Part shown: piece by piece, positions 19,856-41,204 of the stretch | How the letters are laid out: each line of letters opens with the position of its first letter | Position numbering within the stretch: the first letter of the stretch is position 1 | Origin: a virus | Taxonomy: Duplodnaviria > Heunggongvirae > Uroviricota > Caudoviricetes | IMG/VR virus record: IMGVR_UViG_2695420595_000014 | Span: 1 to 42,212 of that record | DNA: 42,212 bases | Reading direction: 5' to 3' (one strand) | Notes under the pieces: model-generated | Told to the model about the DNA's origin: nothing | What the model saw: the letters and a program-made list of their open reading frames with translations, nothing else | Database searches by the model: none | Translations under genes and position numbers: made by a program

Positions 19856-19930
19856 GGGTCAGTCGTATAAAGGTCATTACGGAAGGCTGTTAACCTTCTT
19901 ATCGTGGTTCGAGTCCACGCTGTCCCGCCA
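19856..19930 (+). tRNA. tRNA-like gene, anticodon GUU (Asn) by manual folding, with acceptor and D-stem mismatches
   Basis: 75 nt ending CCA; T-arm cgtgg-ttcgagt-ccacg; 5-bp anticodon stem with loop CUGUUAA; one T-T mismatch in the acceptor stem and one in the D stem. Confidence 0.5.
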
Positions 19931-19935
19931 AATAT

Positions 19936-20011
19936 GCTGGTTTAGCTCCAATGGTAGAGCAGTCGCCTTGTAAGCGAATGGGTAGCGGTTCAAGTCCGTT
20001 AACCAGCACCA
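19936..20011 (+). tRNA. tRNA, anticodon UGU (Thr) by manual folding
   Basis: 76 nt; perfect 7-bp acceptor stem GCTGGTT/AACCAGC, D-arm GCTC/GAGC, anticodon loop CUUGUAA, T-loop TTCAAGT, 3' CCA. Confidence 0.7.
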
Positions 20012-20253: not shown

Positions 20254-20577
20254 ATGAAGATGCCAGAAAAACATGACCTGTTAGCCGCCATTCTCGCGGC
20301 AAAGGAACAAGGCATCGGGGCAATCCTTGCGTTTGCAATGGCGTACCTTCGCGGCAGATATAATGGCGGTGCGTTTACAAAAACAGTAATCGACGCAACG
20401 ATGTGCGCCATTATCGCCTGGTTCATTCGTGACCTTCTCGACTTCGCCGGACTAAGTAGCAATCTCGCTTATATAACGAGCGTGTTCATCGGCTACATCG
20501 GTACTGACTCGATTGGTTCGCTTATCAAACGCTTCGCTGCTAAAAAAGCCGGAGTAGAAGATGGTGGAAATCAATAA
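20254..20577 (+). CDS. S: Holin S (class I, dual-start, 107 aa)
   Basis: [39 protein letters not shown]... essentially identical to lambda S from memory. Confidence 0.9.
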
Positions 20578-21037
20578 TCAACGTAAGGCGTTCCTCGATA
20601 TGCTGGCGTGGTCAGAGGGAACTGATAATGGACGTCAGAAAACCAGAAATCATGGTTATGACGTCATTGTTGGCGGAGAGCTATTCACTGATTACTCCGA
20701 TCACCCTCGCAAACTTGTCACGCTAAACCCCAAACTCAAATCAACAGCCGCCGGACGCTACCAGCTTCTTTCCCGTTGGTGGGATGCCTATCGTAAGCAG
20801 CTTGGCCTGAAAGACTTCTCTCCGAAAAGCCAGGACGCTGTGGCACTGCAACAGATTAAAGAGCGTGGCGCTTTACCGATGATTGATCGCGGTGATATCC
20901 GTCAGGCAATCGACCGTTGCAGCAATATCTGGGCTTCACTGCCGGGGGCTGGTTATGGTCAGTTCGAGCATAAGGCTGACAGCCTGATTGCAAAATTCAA
21001 AGAGGCTGGCGGAGCGGTCAGAGAGATTGAGGTATGA
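20561..21037 (+). CDS. R: Endolysin R (lytic transglycosylase, 158 aa)
   Basis: [39 protein letters not shown]... near-identical to lambda R. Confidence 0.9.
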
Positions 21038-21501
21038 GCAGAGTAACCGCGATTATCTCCGCTCTGGTTATCTGCATCATCGTCTGTCTGTCATGGGCTG
21101 TTAATCATTACCGTGATAATGCCATCGCCTACAAAGAGCAGCGAGATAAAAAAGTCAGTGAGCTGAAGCAGGCGACCGCCACCATTACTGACATGCAGCA
21201 ACGCCAGCGTGCTGCTGATGTACTCGATGCTAAATACACGAAGGAGTTAGCTGATGCGAAAGCTGAAAATGATGCTCTTCGTCGCAAGCTTGATAATGGT
21301 GGCAGGGTGCTCGTCAAAGGAAAATGCCCTGTGCCATCCTCAGCCGAAACCTCCGGCGCCTCCGGCATGGGCAATGATGCCACCGTCGAACTCTCTCCAG
21401 TTGCTGGACGAAACGTTCTCGGTATCCGGGACGGAATCATCAGCGACCAAACAGCACTGAGAACGCTTCAGGAATACATCAGGACGCAATGCCTTCGATG
21501 A
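21034..21501 (+). CDS. Rz: Spanin inner-membrane subunit Rz (155 aa)
   Basis: N-terminal TM, coiled coil; lambda Rz-like; follows R with ATGA overlap. Confidence 0.85.
21254..21460 (+). CDS. Rz1: Spanin outer-membrane lipoprotein Rz1, embedded in Rz in the +1 frame
   Basis: [19 protein letters not shown] lipobox, proline-rich mature region; AAGGAG SD. Confidence 0.7.
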
Positions 21502-32916: not shown

Positions 32917-34332
32917 ATGGCTACGTGGCAACAGGGTATTAATTCTGGTGGTTTTCTGGCTGGCATCGGTACGCAAAATGAGAATGCGCCAAAGGCAAGC
33001 GACATTAACGCAACGCTTGGTCTGATCCGCGAAAACAATGAACTGGCTCGCTCAGGTGCAAATAACGTTGGTCTGACCGCGTTACGTGGTCTGGCTGGAG
33101 TTGCTGATATTTACAATCAGGAACAGCAACAGAAAGCGATTAGTGCGTTCAATAAGGTTCACGCTGATGCATGGGCTTCTGGTGATCCATCGGGACTATT
33201 TAAGTTTGCCAAGGAAAATCCAGCGTTTGTTGCGCAGGCACAACAGGCGTTTTCCGGTCTTAATGAGCAGCAACGCAACGATATGGGCGATTTAGCCATG
33301 AGGGCTAACGTCGCTCTTTCTCAGGGACCGGAAGCCTACAGTAAATTCATTACTGACAACAAGGACAGGTTAAATCGCGTTGGTGCTAATGCTGACTGGA
33401 TGATTCAGACAGGTATCCAGAATCCAGAGCAGCTATCACACATGCTGACTACTATGTCTCTCGGTGCTCTTGGACCAGAAAAGGCGTTTGCTGTTCAGGA
33501 TAAGATGGCTGGTCGTGAAATTGACCGAGGCAGGCTGGCAGAGACAATCCGCAGCAATCAGGCTGGCGAGGCACTTCAGGCGAGAGGGCAAAACCTTTCC
33601 TATCAGTCAGCAATGACTGGGCACAATATCGCAGCACAACGCTTGGCTCTGGATCAGCAAGAGTTCGGGTTTAAGATGCAGCAAGCGCAGGAAAAGGCTC
33701 AGCAGTTGATTAGCGAAGCACCTAAGCTGTCAGTAAATATGGAAAAAGGCATCGAGACGGCTGTAAACAATGCCACAGCATCATCAAACTCAGCCAATTC
33801 CATGAGTGCGCTTGCTCAACAGTTCAGAGCAGAAAAACCAACGACAGGTTTGTTCGGTAACGCACAGAACATGTTCGCAAAACTTACCGGAAGCGATACG
33901 ACATTGCGTGATTTGCGCATTCGCCAAAATGCCCTTGTTAACAGTCAGGTTCTTAAATTCCTACCTCCCGGCCCAGCAACGGATAAAGACGTTGAGATCG
34001 TTCGACAGGGTGCGCCAACTGACATGGATAACCCTGAGACGGTCGCAAGATGGCTTGATGCAATGGCAAACCTTGAGCGACGAAACGCGCAGTTTAATGA
34101 GTTTAAAGCCGAGTGGATGAGCGCGAATGGCAACCCTGGACAATCGCGTAATGGCGGTCAGATATTGGGGTTGGATGTTAAAAAAGGTGAATCATTGGGG
34201 AGTGCCGTTAAGCGGTATATGTCAATGAATACTGACGCAGCGCCAGCACAAGATTCGACACCTTCAGGAGAACCACGGAATCAGGTTGGATCATATACCT
34301 CAAAATCAGGCATTCAATTTACGGTGGAATGA
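32917..34332 (+). CDS. Ejection protein (P22 gp20-like, 471 aa)
   Basis: Same length as P22 gp20; gene order. Confidence 0.65.
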
Positions 34333-36170
34333 TGAAAGTAACTGCAAACGGTAAGACATTTACCTTTCCTGATGGTACGAGCACCGAAGATATTGGCATC
34401 GCCATTGATGAGTATTTTGCTGGTCAGGATGTTCAGCAACAAACAGTTAATCAGGCCAATAATGCACCAACACGGGAAGAACCATCATTGATGCAACAAG
34501 CTGGCGATTGGCTCACTGGTGGTCAAAGTGCAGGGCAAATTGCAGAACAGGCTGGTCGTGGTCTGGTAAACATACCATTTGACGTATTGCAGGGTGGCGC
34601 AAGTCTGATTAATGCAATCAGTCAGGGGATTGGTGGGCCAAAAGTTTTGGATGATGTTTATCGTCCAGTAGACAAACCGACAGACCCATACGCACAAGCC
34701 GGTGAAACAATTGGTGGGTATTTAGTTCCAGGAGTTGGAACGGCAGGAAGCATGGCTATTGGATCGCTGGCAGAGGCCGCAAATCAGAAAGGCGATTTCG
34801 CACAAAATGCAGCTAAAAATGCCGGAGTTAACCTTGCCGCTCAGGGTGTTCTTTCCGCAGCAGCAAAGGGAATAGGGCGTGGAATAACGGCTATAAAAGG
34901 TGATATTGCGCCAGAAGTGGCGAAGAAAATTGCCACATCAGAATCGATGGGCGTGACACCAATGACATCTGATGTTATCCCGCCGAAAAATGCTTTCACT
35001 CGCGGCCTTACTCAGGATGCCGAGGGGGCTTTGCTCGGGACGGGCTCAAAGCGAGCAGAGCAATATGCAACGCGGAGTAAGCTGGTAAGCAATTATTTTG
35101 ACCGTTTTGGTGAGTACAACCCTGATGATGTGGTGAAATCTCTGACCACCACGTTAAGGGGGCGGAAGGATGCCGCTGGCGCTGTTATCAATGACGTCAC
35201 CAATAAAATGGGTAATGCCGCAGTTGATACCACAAATACCATGAATGCTCTGAATACAGCGATCGCAAGACAGGAACGGCTTGGGACGTCTGCCAATCAA
35301 AGCCTGCTTACATCCTTGCGTAACCTACGTGAAGAATTAGCAAACCCTGCAACTGATTTGGATGTTACGTTTGATCTCTTGCGTCAGCACAGAACAGCAT
35401 TTAGATCTAATGTTCAGGGAGATGCTATGGTCTTCCCCAACCAGGCAAAAGCAGCTACCAATATGGTAGAGAATGCAATGTCAAAAGACCTTCGTAACGC
35501 AGTTGCTAAAAACCTCGGTGCATCAGACGCAGCAAAATACCTTAAAGCAAATTCCGATTATGCAAACGTTTATAATAAGGTGCTTAATAAAAACATTGCC
35601 AACAAGCTCAACAAGGCAAGCAGTGAAGCCAGTCCTGAACTTATAAATACCGTTGTATTAAGCAGAAAACCATCTGACGTGAAACGAATCTGGAGCGCAC
35701 TGGATGATAAGGGGAAAGATGCTATGCGTGCAGCTTACGTCAGCAAAATAGCGGAAAAGGCCGGGGACTCTCCAGCCAAGTTCATCACTGAAGTTAATAA
35801 GCTGAAATCTCAGTCAGGCGGTGAAATTTACAACACTATTTTTTCTGGAAAGCACATGAAAGAGCTTGATGCTCTTCATGAAGTTCTACAGCAAACAGCA
35901 AGGTCAGACACCGCAAATGTAGTAACTCAGACGGGGCAATCGCAAGCCAACAGGATAAGGACGATTGGCGCAACTGCGACCCTTGGCGTATCAATGGGGC
36001 TTGAGGCTGGTTTTGGTGCAATGATGCGCTTGTATGAGTCCAAAGCAGCAAGGAATATGCTTCTTCGTTTGGCAAACACCAAAGCAGGAACACCAGCCTA
36101 TGAAAGAGCGATAAATAACGCTGCGAATGCCATCAGACCGCTGTTTGCTACTGAGGCAACACAGCAGTAA
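34329..36170 (+). CDS. Ejection protein (P22 gp16-like, 613 aa)
   Basis: Size and position; ATGA overlap with the previous gene. Confidence 0.65.
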
Positions 36171-36194
36171 CGTATGGGAAATTGGATTCAATCG

Positions 36195-36584
36195 CTAACA
36201 TTTTCTTTTTACTTTTCCAACAAAAGCTTTGGTTGAATCCATATTTCCATAACCGGAAATGGTTTTTGACATTAAAACTGTTCCAGTAGGATGTATTACC
36301 CATGAGTCGATAACGCGTTGAGTTTCGCCATTCGCGCCGATTCCTATGATGGAGTTTTTAGACAATGCTTTGTAAGCCATGCCGCCCGCATCTGTCCCAG
36401 AATATGTGATGCTGGCATCTTCACCGTTTGTCTTAATGATGAATGTTCCACTAAAACCATCTTCTTCCGGATGGAAATTATTTCGTTCTGAATAGCTTAT
36501 TCCGCGCATATCTCCAACGACCCAGCACTCTGCTGTAGCCCCAAAAGATATGAATAAGAACATAGCAGTAAGAAATTGCTTCAC
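36195..36584 (-). CDS. Secreted protein with cleavable signal peptide (129 aa), cargo between gp16 and tailspike
   Basis: MKQFLTAMFLFISFGATA-E signal peptide; opposite strand to the surrounding late operon. Confidence 0.55.
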   Translation of the reverse strand: MKQFLTAMFLFISFGATAECWVVGDMRGISYSERNNFHPEEDGFSGTFIIKTNGEDASITYSGTDAGGMAYKALSKNSIIGIGANGETQRVIDSWVIHPTGTVLMSKTISGYGNMDSTKAFVGKVKRKC

Positions 36585-36702
36585 GCCAACCTCCTTAGTT
36601 TTGAGCAGGATACCATGAAAAAAGTAAACATCTTTTGCCTACTTCACATTTGAATGGTTTGTCATTAGGATGTTTCCGGTTTTTTCAAATATGGAAATTG
36701 AT

Positions 36703-37122
36703 ATGAAGAGGATTATCGGCGTTGTTGCTGGCGCTATATTGTTATCTGGGTGCGCAACTATTGTTGGTGACGAAACACAGCTCGTGCAAGTGAACAGCAA
36801 TCCTTCCGGTGCGAGCTTTAAAGTAAAAGACGAATCAGGCGTGATTGTTGCGCAAGGCAAGACCCCGCAAGGAGTAACTCTTGCCAAGTCAGATGGTAGT
36901 TATTTTGGCAAAAAGAGCTACCAGATCACTATGGAAAAGGATGGGTACGAACCAGTTACCCTGCCAATCAAAGCCAATGCTAATGGTTGGTATATTGGTG
37001 GAAACCTTGTGTTTGGTGGGTTAATTGGTTGGCTTGCTGTAGATCCTTTTAATGGTGGGATGTATACCTTGAAGCCAAAAGAGGCAAACGCATCTCTTAT
37101 ACCATCAACAAAGCAAGACTAA
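36703..37122 (+). CDS. Lipoprotein (about 139 aa)
   Basis: MKRIIGVVAGAILLSGC lipobox within ORF 36670..37122; Gly-rich C-terminal region GWYIGGNLVFGGLIGWLAVDPFNGG. Confidence 0.6.
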   Translation: MKRIIGVVAGAILLSGCATIVGDETQLVQVNSNPSGASFKVKDESGVIVAQGKTPQGVTLAKSDGSYFGKKSYQITMEKDGYEPVTLPIKANANGWYIGGNLVFGGLIGWLAVDPFNGGMYTLKPKEANASLIPSTKQD

Positions 37123-37202
37123 TAAATAGGACCAACCGTCAGGTGGTTTTTTTGTACAAATCCTTCAGCCAGTACATAACTACTGACACTTAACCAACGC
37201 AA

Positions 37203-37229
37203 CGACCCAGCTTCGGCTGGGTTTTTTTA
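37203..37229 (+). terminator. Rho-independent terminator
   Basis: gacccagc-ttcg-gctgggt hairpin followed by T7. Confidence 0.8.
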
Positions 37230-37277
37230 TGCCCAAAATTCACCGTAGCTACTCAGCGGCTATGGCCTTGAGAGATA

Positions 37278-37300: not shown

Positions 37301-37364
37301 AAAAAGCGAACAAATACTCACCGTAGCCATGCTGCGGCGATTCCTTGTATCTGGAGCAAATTAA

Positions 37365-39602
37365 ATGACAGACATTACAGCCAATGTGATCGTATCGATG
37401 CCTTCGCAACTCTTCACTATGGCTCGTTCTTTTAAAGCCGTAGCCAATGGCAAAATTTATATCGGTAAAATTGACACTGACCCGGTAAATACTGAAAACC
37501 AGATTCAGGTTTATGTAGAGAACGAAGATGGTTCTCACGTTCCTGTTTCGCAACCAATCATCATTAACGCTGCTGGATATCCGGTATATAACGGACAGAT
37601 TGCCAAATTCGTAACCGTGCAAGGCCATTCTATGGCTGTTTATGATGCGTATGGTGCGCAGCAGTTCTATTTTTCGAATGTGCTGAAGTATGACCCTGAC
37701 CAACTCAGGCAAGATCTTGCATCTCAAGGAGGTGTTAATCTGGTAAACGGAGCTATCTCACAGGAAGATCTTGTTTTGCAGTCGATCACAAAAATTCCAA
37801 GTTATGATAATTCTAACGTAGTCCAGGCGTGGCGCGATAGTGTTGCGACCTACGGGTATGTTTACTTCTCTAATCATTCAAAAAATCAGATGGTGTACAC
37901 CGTACCGTCTACAGCTGCTAACGCTTCTTTCCTTGCGAACAGTAAAGTAATCATTGATAAAAATGTCACCCTGAGATTCGACAGTGATCTGTACTCACTG
38001 TTTAAATCGTTGCAGTACGAGGGGGAGGGTACGTTTGAATTTACGCACCTGAACTTTAAAGCAACCGGTGGAGAAGTGGATTATCTGGCTAAGCAGGCCA
38101 TCCTCAACCGAAACCCTATTCGCATGAAGCGAGTGGAATGGTCAGATTGTAAAGTTTATTCCATAAATGGTGACACGTTCTTCTATGAAGGTGAAGTCAC
38201 CATATCCTCAGATAGCGCAGCTATCTTCCCCTTAACTACTGACCGTACAACAGGCCTGTTCGCACCAATAGATATTGGAGAGCATATTTCTGCACATATT
38301 CGTATGGAATCTCAGGCCGCCTCAGAAGTTGGGATTGTTCTGCGATGCTCTGGTGGTTGGATGATGTTCTATGGGGCACCAGGTGCTACACAGTGGTCTT
38401 ATAGACAGAAACCAATTGGTGGTCCAGTAGCAGAAGGAACTCCATTCCCGCTGCCAGGAGGTTTACTGTCGTACGCCCCGGGCAAAGCAACCGTTGGCGT
38501 ATCACTGCAAGGTAAAAACTGGGCGCAGATAACGATGAATGGCGTTGGGATACGTTTGCCCTTTGATACTGCTGATGTAGGGGATGTATACGAAGTTGGG
38601 TTTGTTGCACTGACCACGGCATCTGGAGGTTCTGCGCGTGTAACTGGATTATGCAGCTACACCTCTGATAATGGCGTGCACGGTAAGCCTCCACTTAATA
38701 TCCTTATCCACGGTGATAGTACAGCTGAGGATTTCATTTCCGCGTTCAGCTCGTACATTCCGCAATTAATGGATGGAGCGAACGGCCACCGTTCACATAG
38801 CATTGTAAACAAGGCAGTTGCCGGACAGACAATGAGGCAACAGTTAGATCTCCTGAAGGCTCAGGGGCCGGGTGATGCTTACATCGTTATTATGGTTGCC
38901 GGAACTAACGAAGGGCAGGCAAACCAAAACGGCGATTATATGGCGTCATTGATAGATGAGTTTGTCTTATATTGCAATGGCCTTGGTCGTATCCCTGTTT
39001 GGGTTGAGCCGTGGATGTGGTATAGCCAGTCATTTATTGGAGGGGCTGGCCAGCCATCTTCTAACTACGACGGTGTCGCAGAGTTGCGAGAAGCTGGTAA
39101 ACGCCAGATGATGAAATATGGCAATAACGTCATTTGTGTAACAACAACTCACCAGCTCCCGGCCCCATATCCAGAGTATTTCAACACGCAATACGACCCA
39201 CTTCTGCGTGATGACATTCACCAAAGCCAGTTAGGGTATCGTCTGTATGCGGAAATTATCTGCTCTGCCATTATCGACTGGTGGTCGCGTGTTGATTACA
39301 CGCCAAGAGCAGCTGTTCAATGGTGGGCTGGAACAAACGTAACAGTACAGGCACCGTCAAGTTTAACTGCCAATTCAATTAATATTGAACTGGCAGCCAC
39401 TTCATTTGCGAATGGCAATACTGTTCTAACGCTTCCGAGGTGGTGCAGACCAAAAGTAACCAAAAATGTCCCTGTACCGTTCACTGCTGATGGCGTTTCA
39501 TTTGGCATGGCAATGGCCACCATTAATGCTTCAACAGGACAAATATCGATTGAAGGGTCCACCACTACATCTCCAACGTTCTACATAGATGCGACATGGT
39601 AG
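37365..39602 (+). CDS. Tailspike: P22-type head-binding N-domain plus receptor-binding part with SGNH-hydrolase (esterase) motifs (745 aa)
   Basis: First ~110 aa match the P22 tailspike head-binding domain; C-terminal region carries GDS(T) (nt 38712..38720), a later Gly block, GTNE and DDIH blocks in SGNH order. Confidence 0.8.
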
Positions 39603-39810: not shown

Positions 39811-40968
39811 TCACTCCACCTTCCCATCAAGCCATTCCGCCCACCACTGCATCATTTCTCTGCGCTTATCTAGATACTGAGCATGGTTGTAAATCCCGCG
39901 CACAGATCCGCCGTTGGCATGTGCAAGTTGCACTTCAATAGCGTCAGCAGGCCATTCGTGCTCGTTCATAATCGTGCTGAATTCATGCCTGAATCCGTGA
40001 CCGCTTTCCAGACCCTCATAGCCGATTTGTTTAATCACAAGTAGCACCGCGTTCTCGCAGATTGGCTTCTTCTTATCGTTGCGTCCGGCAAAAACAAACT
40101 CTGATACTGGTTTGGTGATTGAGCTTAGCGTAGTGAGAAGTTCAACCACCTGGTCTGACATAGGAACCACATGAATTTTGCGTCCCTTCATCACACTGGC
40201 GTCGATAGTGATAATCCTGTTTTCAAAATCGACGTTCTTCCATTGCATGGAACGAAGCTCTTTCGTTCTTAGGGCTGTGTAGCGTAAAACTTTGGTCGCA
40301 ATGAGCGATACGATGCTTCCTGAAAATGTTGCCAGTGCTTTGTTGAATGCCGGGATCTGGTCTGCAGGAAGAAACGGGAAGTTCTTCTTGCGGTATCCTT
40401 TCATGGCGTCTGCAAGGTCAGGTGCCGGGTTATATTTAGCCCTACCAGTGACAATAGCGTAACGGAAAACCTCGCCGCATCTTCTGCGTGCTTTGTTGGC
40501 TCGCTCCATTGCGCCGCGATCTTCAAATCTGCGGATTACTTCCAGCAGTTGCATCGGCTCAATATCCTGAATTTCAAGGCCGCCGATGATAGGTAAAATG
40601 TCGTCATCAAACATTTTTGCAAGTTCAGTTGCATAGCCTACTGACCAGACTTGCTTCTTGTGCTCGTACCATTCCTTGTAAATCGCACTAAAGGAATTGT
40701 TGTTAGACGAAGCCTTTTTCGCTTTTACCGGATCGATGCCAACCGAGATGTCTTTCCTCGCAGTCCATGCTTTATCCCTTGCCTCCTGCAAAGTCATTAG
40801 CGGATATTTTCCTACGGTCAGGATTTTCTCCTTACCGTCAATCTTGTAGCGAAGCTGCCATACCTTTTTCCCTGACACAGGGACATAAAGGTACAGGCCA
40901 TTACCATCGAGTAGGCGGTATGGTTTTTCTTTCGGCTTTGCTGCTTCAATCTGCTTAACGGTGAGCAT
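39811..40968 (-). CDS. intS: Tyrosine integrase, P4-type (about 385 aa)
   Basis: Essentially matches IntS of CPS-53/KplE1 from memory; catalytic-domain R...HxxR...Y; adjacent to argW; start chosen at MLTVKQIEAAKPK. Confidence 0.9.
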   Translation of the reverse strand: MLTVKQIEAAKPKEKPYRLLDGNGLYLYVPVSGKKVWQLRYKIDGKEKILTVGKYPLMTLQEARDKAWTARKDISVGIDPVKAKKASSNNNSFSAIYKEWYEHKKQVWSVGYATELAKMFDDDILPIIGGLEIQDIEPMQLLEVIRRFEDRGAMERANKARRRCGEVFRYAIVTGRAKYNPAPDLADAMKGYRKKNFPFLPADQIPAFNKALATFSGSIVSLIATKVLRYTALRTKELRSMQWKNVDFENRIITIDASVMKGRKIHVVPMSDQVVELLTTLSSITKPVSEFVFAGRNDKKKPICENAVLLVIKQIGYEGLESGHGFRHEFSTIMNEHEWPADAIEVQLAHANGGSVRGIYNHAQYLDKRREMMQWWAEWLDGKVE

Positions 40969-41129
40969 GGGTAAAAATCCGGTGGGTAAAATTATTTTAT
41001 CCACTTTTTACCCGTCATGGAGTGCGGCTGTCAACGATCTGACGCGAACCATTACGAACTGTGAATCTACGGAAGGCTTGATATTCAGGGGATTTTGCGG
41101 ACTGGTACGGATGGGAGCGAACTGATAAA

Positions 41130-41204
41130 TGGTGTCCCCTGCAGGAATCGAACCTGCAATTAGCCCTTAGGAGGGGCTCGTTATATCCATTTAACTAAGA
41201 GGAC
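41130..41204 (-). tRNA. argW: tRNA-Arg (anticodon CCU)
   Basis: Reverse complement reads GTCCTCTTAGTTAAATGGATATAACGAGCCCCTCCTAAGGGCTAATTGCAGGTTCGATTCCTGCAGGGGACACCA; cloverleaf folds with anticodon CCU. Confidence 0.95.

Follow-up and report, generated by a model that had tools for sequence, protein, structure and literature searches.

What does a P22-like prophage carry at the position where P22 has its superinfection exclusion gene sieA, and do the genes found there belong together? To our knowledge, SieA is the only characterised exclusion protein acting on the DNA delivery of P22-like phages, and only about one in three of the P22-like phages sequenced has the gene. The 42,212-nt IMG/VR virus record IMGVR_UViG_2695420595_000014, analysed here over its whole length (the window), contains a P22-like (Lederbergvirus-type) prophage of ~40 kb, in which the interval between a gp16-type DNA-ejection gene and the tailspike gene holds two divergent genes: orfA (36195..36584, minus strand), a 129-amino-acid (aa) open reading frame (ORF) with a GTG start, and orfB (36703..37122, plus strand; ORF listed as 36670..37122), encoding a predicted lipoprotein of 139 aa (phrog_6823). 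An initial annotation had suggested that this pair is a single, independently expressed lysogenic-conversion cassette. Both are real genes. Judged from sequence comparison, however, the interval is composed of two unrelated, independently mobile morons and not of one cassette: orfA is a member of the Hex family located behind an upstream region common to P22 sieA, the 'sieA socket' (36585..36631, 47 nt, minus strand), and orfB belongs to a conserved lipoprotein family.

Among 5426 complete E. coli genomes, orfA is present in 147 and orfB in 124, and in about two-thirds of cases the one is found without the other. Among the IMG/VR matches listed, at least six different genes behind the socket ('cargoes') have orfB as their divergent neighbour. 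Relative to phage epsilon34, the mosaic joint coincides exactly with the orfA start codon; relative to phages Emek and P22, the joints lie 31-47 bp upstream of it. As morons, in the sense of Juhala and Hendrix, are extra genes between the neighbours seen in relatives, it fits that orfB is absent from P22 and Emek, and that P22 and epsilon34 have other cargo in place of orfA. With regard to accompanying elements, orfB has a weak promoter-like site and a terminator-like hairpin, while orfA has the sieA upstream region and an inverted repeat, with no canonical terminator. A functional two-component cassette, consisting of a secreted factor and a lipoprotein partner, would agree with the divergent arrangement around a 118-bp intergenic region and with the joint presence of both genes in ~42 of the E. 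coli genomes and at 10 of the 23 Hex-like socket loci among the matches listed. Nevertheless, we give this explanation hardly any credence, since each gene is mostly found without the other, the joints lie at and just upstream of the orfA start codon, and orfB homologues stand alone in siphovirus prophages.

The Hex-family gene orfA and the sieA socket

The GTG start of orfA lies five bases after a perfect Shine-Dalgarno (SD) sequence, AAGGAGG (36596-36590). The N-terminus of its product, MKQFLTAMFLFISFGATA|ECW, contains a lysine in the n-region, a hydrophobic core and A-T-A at positions -3/-1, and is predicted to be a signal peptide of 18 residues (aa 1-18, nt 36584-36531, minus strand), in agreement with the secreted 129-aa protein described previously. 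The mature part opens with E-C-W and closes with Cys129. An AlphaFold2 model with a predicted local distance difference test (pLDDT) score of 86.7 is an all-beta barrel, in which the sole hydrophobic segment is the signal peptide. We infer that the orfA product would be a soluble periplasmic barrel, as it is short and hydrophilic, lacks a C-terminal aromatic residue and has a conserved Cys pair on its first and last strands. An integral outer-membrane barrel, an idea suggested by the PagP label on the homologue of phage Huey, was rejected on account of the ~110 mature residues, the hydrophilic character, the lack of a C-terminal aromatic residue and the N-to-C Cys pair. No family was assigned to orfA by Pfam, NCBIfam or PADLOC, and a PDB sequence search with the orfA and orfB family profiles returned nothing meaningful. 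The orfA orthologue WP_001334102.1 (L003 4096-4464; L023 1596-1964) is annotated in RefSeq as a 122-aa protein with an internal ATG start; the GTG seven codons upstream of this ATG has a perfect SD sequence and is common to sieA. The annotated ATG cuts into the signal peptide, so that the export signal could escape automated predictors.

In the PHROGs database, orfA is assigned to phrog_2651 (434 Hex / Sf6 gp38; E-value 2.9e-61, profile positions 1-116 of 117), a family that 434 Hex itself matches over its full length (E-value 1.4e-58). The two proteins align end to end with 27% identity over 133 columns (E-value 3e-12), and the alignment keeps the signal peptide, the ECW motif and the C-terminal Cys. 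Phage genomes searched with tblastn contain near-identical copies in Salmonella phages Emek and ST-35; furthermore, full-length matches with 27% identity correspond to the gene directly downstream of cI in 434, lambda-imm434, Sf6 (gene 38), Sf101, HK446, HK633 and Huey, which in 434 is hex (L004 1501-1905). A profile search of 1.8 billion representative proteins identified 126 Hex-family clusters, almost all of 120-137 aa, and a word-index profile search for further relatives yielded little extra. C20 is invariant and C129 nearly invariant in the family. Among 105 full-length representatives, a hydrophobic h-region is present in 102 and a basic n-region in 101, the -3/-1 rule is satisfied just before x-C-W in 90, and 98 contain exactly two or four Cys in the mature part. 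With these near-universal signal-peptide features and even Cys counts, Hex-family proteins appear to be exported. The 'active' Hex fragment (sHex) begins at E43 of a 158-aa ORF, which equals E19 of the 134-aa protein and coincides exactly with the predicted signal-peptidase site. A phage-like contig with a distant Hex-family gene also codes for a KilA-N/BstA_C protein (L022 745-1596).

The initial annotation had placed the interval at the sieA position of P22, and this holds to within a few base pairs: sieA lies on the minus strand 22 bp past the gene 16 stop, and orfA on the same strand 24 bp past it. The similarity extends upstream of the genes: positions 36582-36631 of the window share 94% identity with the 50-bp stretch of P22 that comprises the sieA start and the sequence before it. 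Aligned across four phages, the core TGGTATCCTG..CAAAACTAAGGAGGTTGG(Y)GTG is invariant, as is TGgTATCCT (36615-36607, minus strand), which in our own reading resembles an extended -10 element. This core precedes three different genes, namely P22 sieA, the hkcB-like gp14 gene of epsilon34 and the Hex-like gene of Emek and the window. In the P22-pbi annotation the promoter PsieA is located 31-61 nt upstream of the sieA start, and the window keeps the proximal part of this feature. Single-copy sieA together with 85 bp of upstream sequence suffices for exclusion (Leavitt et al., PMC10883804).

A scan of IMG/VR with a 30-nt portion of the socket, TGGTATCCTGNNCAAAACTAAGGAGGTTGG, identified at least 120 contigs (loci L029-L148), in which the ORFs that follow belong to at least 12 unrelated small families, most of them uncharacterised. 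Among the matches listed, the Hex-like proteins are the largest group (25 members), followed by two families of 107-109 aa with a hydrophobic N-terminus (24 and 15 members); SieA itself accounts for seven members, and small hydrophobic proteins of 62, 75 and 116 aa as well as several further families, two of them with signal-peptide-like N-termini, were also found. Inspected by eye, most of these listed cargoes open with a hydrophobic or signal-like segment. The socket thus appears from its sequence context to be a conserved plug-in expression site. orfA is clustered apart from the 164-aa SieA cargo, shows no homology to SieA types A-C and lacks both the FxRYPxEAxxFNK motif and the three transmembrane helices of SieA.

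The lipoprotein gene orfB and its relatives

All 38 homologues aligned begin at a Met equivalent to position 36703 (MKRIIGVVAGAILLSGC). The lipobox LSGC noted in the initial annotation ends in Cys17 (36751-36753), and both this Cys and the Ala at +2 are invariant in the 38 sequences. With this lipobox, which fits the consensus [LVI][ASTVI][GAS]C, and no Asp at +2, orfB is predicted to be a lipoprotein sorted to the outer membrane. The remainder of the protein consists of a beta-sandwich (aa 25-93, 36775-36981; pLDDT ~95), a Gly-rich hydrophobic segment (aa 94-119, 36982-37059) and a beta-hairpin (aa 121-131) that is confident in the AlphaFold model. The Gly-rich segment, NGWYIGGNLVFGGLIGWLAVDPFNGGMY, likewise described before, is the best-conserved part of the family, and its invariant stretch is modelled as a low-confidence pair of short helices (residues 96-116). 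We favour a re-entrant, membrane-dipping loop over a transmembrane span for this stretch, since in the model the conserved hairpin that follows appears to be part of the fold. The sandwich resembles transthyretin/PEGA-like domains, with a PEGA (PF08308) score below the Pfam gathering threshold. Searches of Pfam, NCBIfam and PADLOC with orfB produced only sub-threshold matches to PEGA, LEPBI_I2678 and Cor; the Cor models NF047972 and phrog_1119 match only the signal peptide (residues 1-20 and 1-30; E-values 0.0034 and 0.19) and are below cut-off.

Upstream of orfB, a weak promoter-like site, TTCACA-17-TAGGAT, is located at 36643..36671 (plus strand) in a region that is 94% identical to epsilon34. 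Downstream, a terminator-like hairpin followed by seven T residues (37131..37155, plus strand; -10.2 kcal/mol) overlaps a remnant of the mnt 3' end; at the homologous position, the epsilon34 annotation lists a Rho-independent terminator. This hairpin, the Hex homology of orfA and the loss of the immI region described below had not been part of the initial annotation.

orfB is 97.8-100% identical to epsilon34 gp15, its orthologue, and to genes of phages Gally and vB_EcoP-720R6. Its family comprises 728 homologues in Enterobacterales and beyond, and according to the epsilon34 paper many bacterial genes without a known function match gene 15; literature searches for orfB or epsilon34 gp15 retrieved no study of either. 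In HK97-like E. coli and Proteus siphovirus prophages, homologues with 68-71% identity are located between the tail chaperone (gpT) and tape measure genes, where HK97 has its exclusion moron gp15 (PMC3594210), and in Pseudescherichia a homologue lies between gpI and gpJ. The homologues of Proteus and Pseudescherichia (P. vulneris) are surrounded by promoter-like and terminator elements clearer than those of orfB itself. In Enterobacter and other gammaproteobacteria, a homologue is part of the ordinary chromosome, in a neighbourhood free of phage genes. The HK97-like prophage of E. coli ED1a that encodes an orfB homologue also contains a porin gene between tail genes M and L (L009 10261-11424).

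Surroundings of the interval

An imperfect inverted repeat spans the gap between the gp16-type gene and orfA together with the last orfA codons (36173..36251). The repeat reported by the initial annotation is real and longer than stated there, with two 19-nt arms (36173-36191 and 36233-36251) around a 41-nt loop, but it does not bracket the gene pair, as both arms lie at the gp16 end and one of them is inside the 3' end of orfA. The arms are complementary at 16 of 19 positions, which none of 60 shuffled sequences reached, and fold with a free energy of -23.2 kcal/mol on the plus strand and -19.3 kcal/mol on the minus strand. A terminator or the end of a mobile element was rejected as an interpretation, given that there is no U-tract, both arms lie at one end and one arm is coding. 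Similarly, the strong intrinsic terminator that had been taken as the right border of the cassette exists (37204..37230, plus strand; hairpin 37204-37223 followed by a T-run), yet it does not belong to the two genes; it is the conserved post-ant terminator of P22-like phages, annotated equivalently in epsilon34, HK620 and P22-pbi.

Between orfB and this terminator lies the scar of a lost immI region (37136..37186). Positions 37136-37169 correspond to the last ~10 codons and stop region of mnt, with 100% identity to P22, and positions 37170-37186 to the 17 nt at the 3' end of ant. Apart from these two remnants, which are directly joined at 37169/37170, nothing is left of immI (mnt-arc-sar-ant). 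In close E. coli relatives, immI is complete (L003) or mnt persists as a truncated pseudogene (L023 and LF82), and the exact junction was found in none of the complete E. coli genomes searched.

The left boundary of the interval is the gp16-type gene (34329..36170, plus strand), whose relatives are annotated as P22-gp16 family ejection proteins and which follows a gene with a Pfam Inj_translocase match (32917..34332). The right boundary is the tailspike gene (37365..39602, plus strand; Pfam Head_binding, E-value 6e-66). The Pfam match of this 745-aa protein is confined to the N-terminal head-binding domain (residues 1-113), and no Pfam family covers its receptor-binding part. Between the post-ant terminator and the tailspike start lies an imperfect direct repeat of 29 nt (76%; 37235-37263 and 37313-37341), in a region annotated as 'boundary sequence' (bsq1) in phage CUS-3. 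The G+C content of the interval is 0.41-0.45, compared with 0.47-0.50 in the ejection genes; it is also ~0.43 in the 5' half of the tailspike gene. The prophage encodes a LexA-like S24 repressor and is integrated at a tRNA-Arg(CCT) gene (41130-41204) that adjoins the integrase gene (39811-41004); the flanking host DNA codes for an FNT-family transporter and a LacY-like symporter. Adjacent tRNA-Asn(GTT) and tRNA-Thr(TGT) genes (19856-20011) are located just upstream of the ORFs at 20254-21501, which we take, from position alone, to be lysis genes.

Possible roles and known counterparts

Our preferred reading, which we hold tentatively and at somewhat less than even confidence, is that orfA is a periplasmic exclusion factor and orfB an envelope conversion lipoprotein, both carried as prophage morons. 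Both genes are probably expressed in the lysogen, and the independent expression of prophage type that was suggested earlier is plausible, as orfA has the upstream region of P22 sieA and orfB has promoter-like and terminator elements. Transcription of orfA from the repressed prophage would be expected because of its sieA slot, its orientation and its upstream region with SD sequence, GTG start and extended -10-like motif. Sec export and cleavage after A-T-A would then deliver the product to the periplasm, where it would fold into a small beta-barrel closed by a disulfide. Given the homology to 434 Hex and the slot equivalence with SieA, it most likely would serve as a functional alternative to SieA and stop superinfecting P22-like phages at the envelope, probably by acting on the trans-periplasmic conduit formed by the ejection proteins or on the step at which the virion breaches the cell wall. 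The orfB product would be sorted to the outer membrane by the Lol system because of the Ala at +2, its Gly-rich hairpin probably inserting into the membrane and its transthyretin/PEGA-like domain facing the periplasm, where it most likely would alter an outer-membrane component, with exclusion or receptor masking, or envelope fitness, as the outcome. The envelope location of both products had been proposed before and gains support from the conserved lipobox and the signal-peptide features of the Hex family. The sequence data show that both genes exist, which families they belong to, that they have export signals, that orfA and sieA have an upstream region in common and that the two genes assort independently; we infer the localisation, as we do expression in the lysogen and any anti-phage activity.

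Several observations weigh against this reading. Identity between orfA and Hex is low (27%), and the sole mechanistic Hex paper (PMC3564112) assigns Hex a cytoplasmic role. The putative -35 part of PsieA is not conserved in the window, and a promoter scan detected no consensus minus-strand promoter for orfA. The structure-based homology search that had been recommended returned only generic barrels and sandwiches for both proteins, and in a Foldseek comparison with viral structures all template modelling (TM) scores were <0.5. Neither orfA nor orfB matches any PADLOC model, orfB is highly conserved, unlike an arms-race protein, and copies with ~80% identity at non-prophage chromosomal loci weaken the case for exclusion or receptor masking by orfB. 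These last three points also favour the possible but less probable explanation that both genes are lysogenic-conversion genes for the host envelope (stress, serum or antimicrobial resistance, adhesion) with no anti-phage role, for which the lysogenic-conversion genes bor and lom, whose products benefit the host envelope, provide the model. This would hold above all for orfB, whose function would then still be that of its chromosomal relatives, and is consistent with the 728 homologues across Enterobacterales and with the many bacterial matches seen by the authors of the epsilon34 study. On the other hand, orfA is in the sieA socket and its family includes Hex, for which an exclusion phenotype has been described genetically, and orfB homologues recur beside envelope-crossing tail and ejection genes, including in the HK97 gp15 slot. 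HK97 gp15 itself comes from a chromosomal family, YebO (PMC3594210).

The published view of Hex would place orfA in the cytoplasm, where it would shield the prophage repressor from RecA-stimulated autocleavage and stabilise lysogeny. According to PMC3564112, lysogens transcribe hex together with cI from PRM, deletion of hex increased spontaneous induction 30-fold in recA+ cells only, and a Hex fragment inhibited the cleavage of 434 and P22 repressors in vitro; the repressor encoded in the window is a LexA-like S24 protein. According to its passages on exclusion, which cite Susskind and Botstein (1980), Hex stands for 'heterologous exclusion', lambda-imm434 lysogens of Salmonella exclude P22 whereas hex- lysogens do not. 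Within the family, this phenotype is known only for 434 Hex. The export signals of the family fit poorly with a cytoplasmic role: family-wide signal peptides and even Cys counts favour export, and the sHex fragment begins precisely at the predicted signal-peptidase site. In addition, overexpressed full-length Hex is toxic, and PMC3564112 does not consider export. Since orfA is also unlinked to the repressor gene and situated in an exclusion slot, we regard a cytoplasmic role as very unlikely.

An action of the two genes during the lytic cycle is improbable as well. They might block the readsorption of progeny to debris, as Llp does in T5, or aid envelope disruption; orfB points in the direction of the late operon and late transcripts would extend across it, and it shares with all examined prophage homologues the orientation of the late or tail genes. 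In contrast, orfA runs antisense to the late operon, neither gene is indispensable, given their absence from many close relatives, the orfB homologues are flanked by terminators, and the putative lysis ORFs are located elsewhere.

The locus contains no new kind of element; orfA and orfB each add a member to a family that is known but poorly understood, and their location is an established moron hotspot. New are the link between Hex and the sieA slot, for which literature searches retrieved no earlier work, the evidence that the Hex family is secreted, and the cargo diversity behind one socket. Hex was defined genetically as an exclusion gene in 1980, according to the passages on exclusion mentioned above, and its relative is the most frequent socket cargo among the matches listed. 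The many alternative small proteins behind the sieA expression socket thus offer a new lead on exclusion of P22-like phages, and the export signals and disulfide pattern provide a concrete hypothesis of a periplasmic Hex and point to a likely misassignment in the literature. More speculatively, and with considerable doubt on our part, the Hex family might be a widespread and so far unrecognised class of soluble periplasmic exclusion factors that stop P22-type phages at the ejection-protein conduit or the cell-wall hydrolase of the virion, in which case the cytoplasmic role of Hex would be an artefact and the PsieA socket would swap at least a dozen envelope-acting exclusion genes. orfB, in turn, marks a conserved lipoprotein family captured repeatedly by phages into tail and ejection modules. 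As orfA and orfB are found in 2-3% of complete E. coli genomes, clinical strains included, they could affect the host range of therapeutic and typing phages.

Among known systems, P22 SieA shares with orfA the genomic slot, the strand, a near-equal distance from the gene 16 stop, the 47-nt upstream region, the SD sequence and the GTG start, and both are envelope proteins, as predicted for orfA. The two have no sequence similarity, and SieA is an inner-membrane superinfection exclusion protein with three transmembrane helices and no signal peptide, whereas orfA appears to be a soluble beta-barrel with a cleavable signal peptide. 434 Hex and Sf6 gp38 resemble orfA in hidden Markov model family, length, signal peptide, ECW motif and C-terminal Cys. 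Their carriers are likewise temperate lambdoid or P22-like phages, and the genes occupy sites expressed from the prophage, as predicted for orfA; the sites differ, however, with Hex encoded directly after cI in the PRM operon and orfA in the sieA slot between gene 16 and the tailspike gene.

For orfB, the closest counterpart is the epsilon34 gene 15 product (97.8% identity), which is likewise encoded before mnt; unlike in the window, its left neighbour is hkcB-like instead of Hex-like and immI is intact. HK97 gp15 is comparable in position, as its slot is occupied by an orfB homologue (68% identity) in an HK97-like E. coli prophage, and, like orfB, it has chromosomal relatives outside prophages. 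The two sequences are nevertheless unrelated, gp15 being an inner-membrane protein of the YebO family and orfB a predicted lipoprotein. The outer-membrane exclusion lipoproteins Cor, Llp and TraT, which are small, phage- or plasmid-borne and encoded near tail genes like orfB, show no homology to it but represent a plausible model for receptor masking by orfB.

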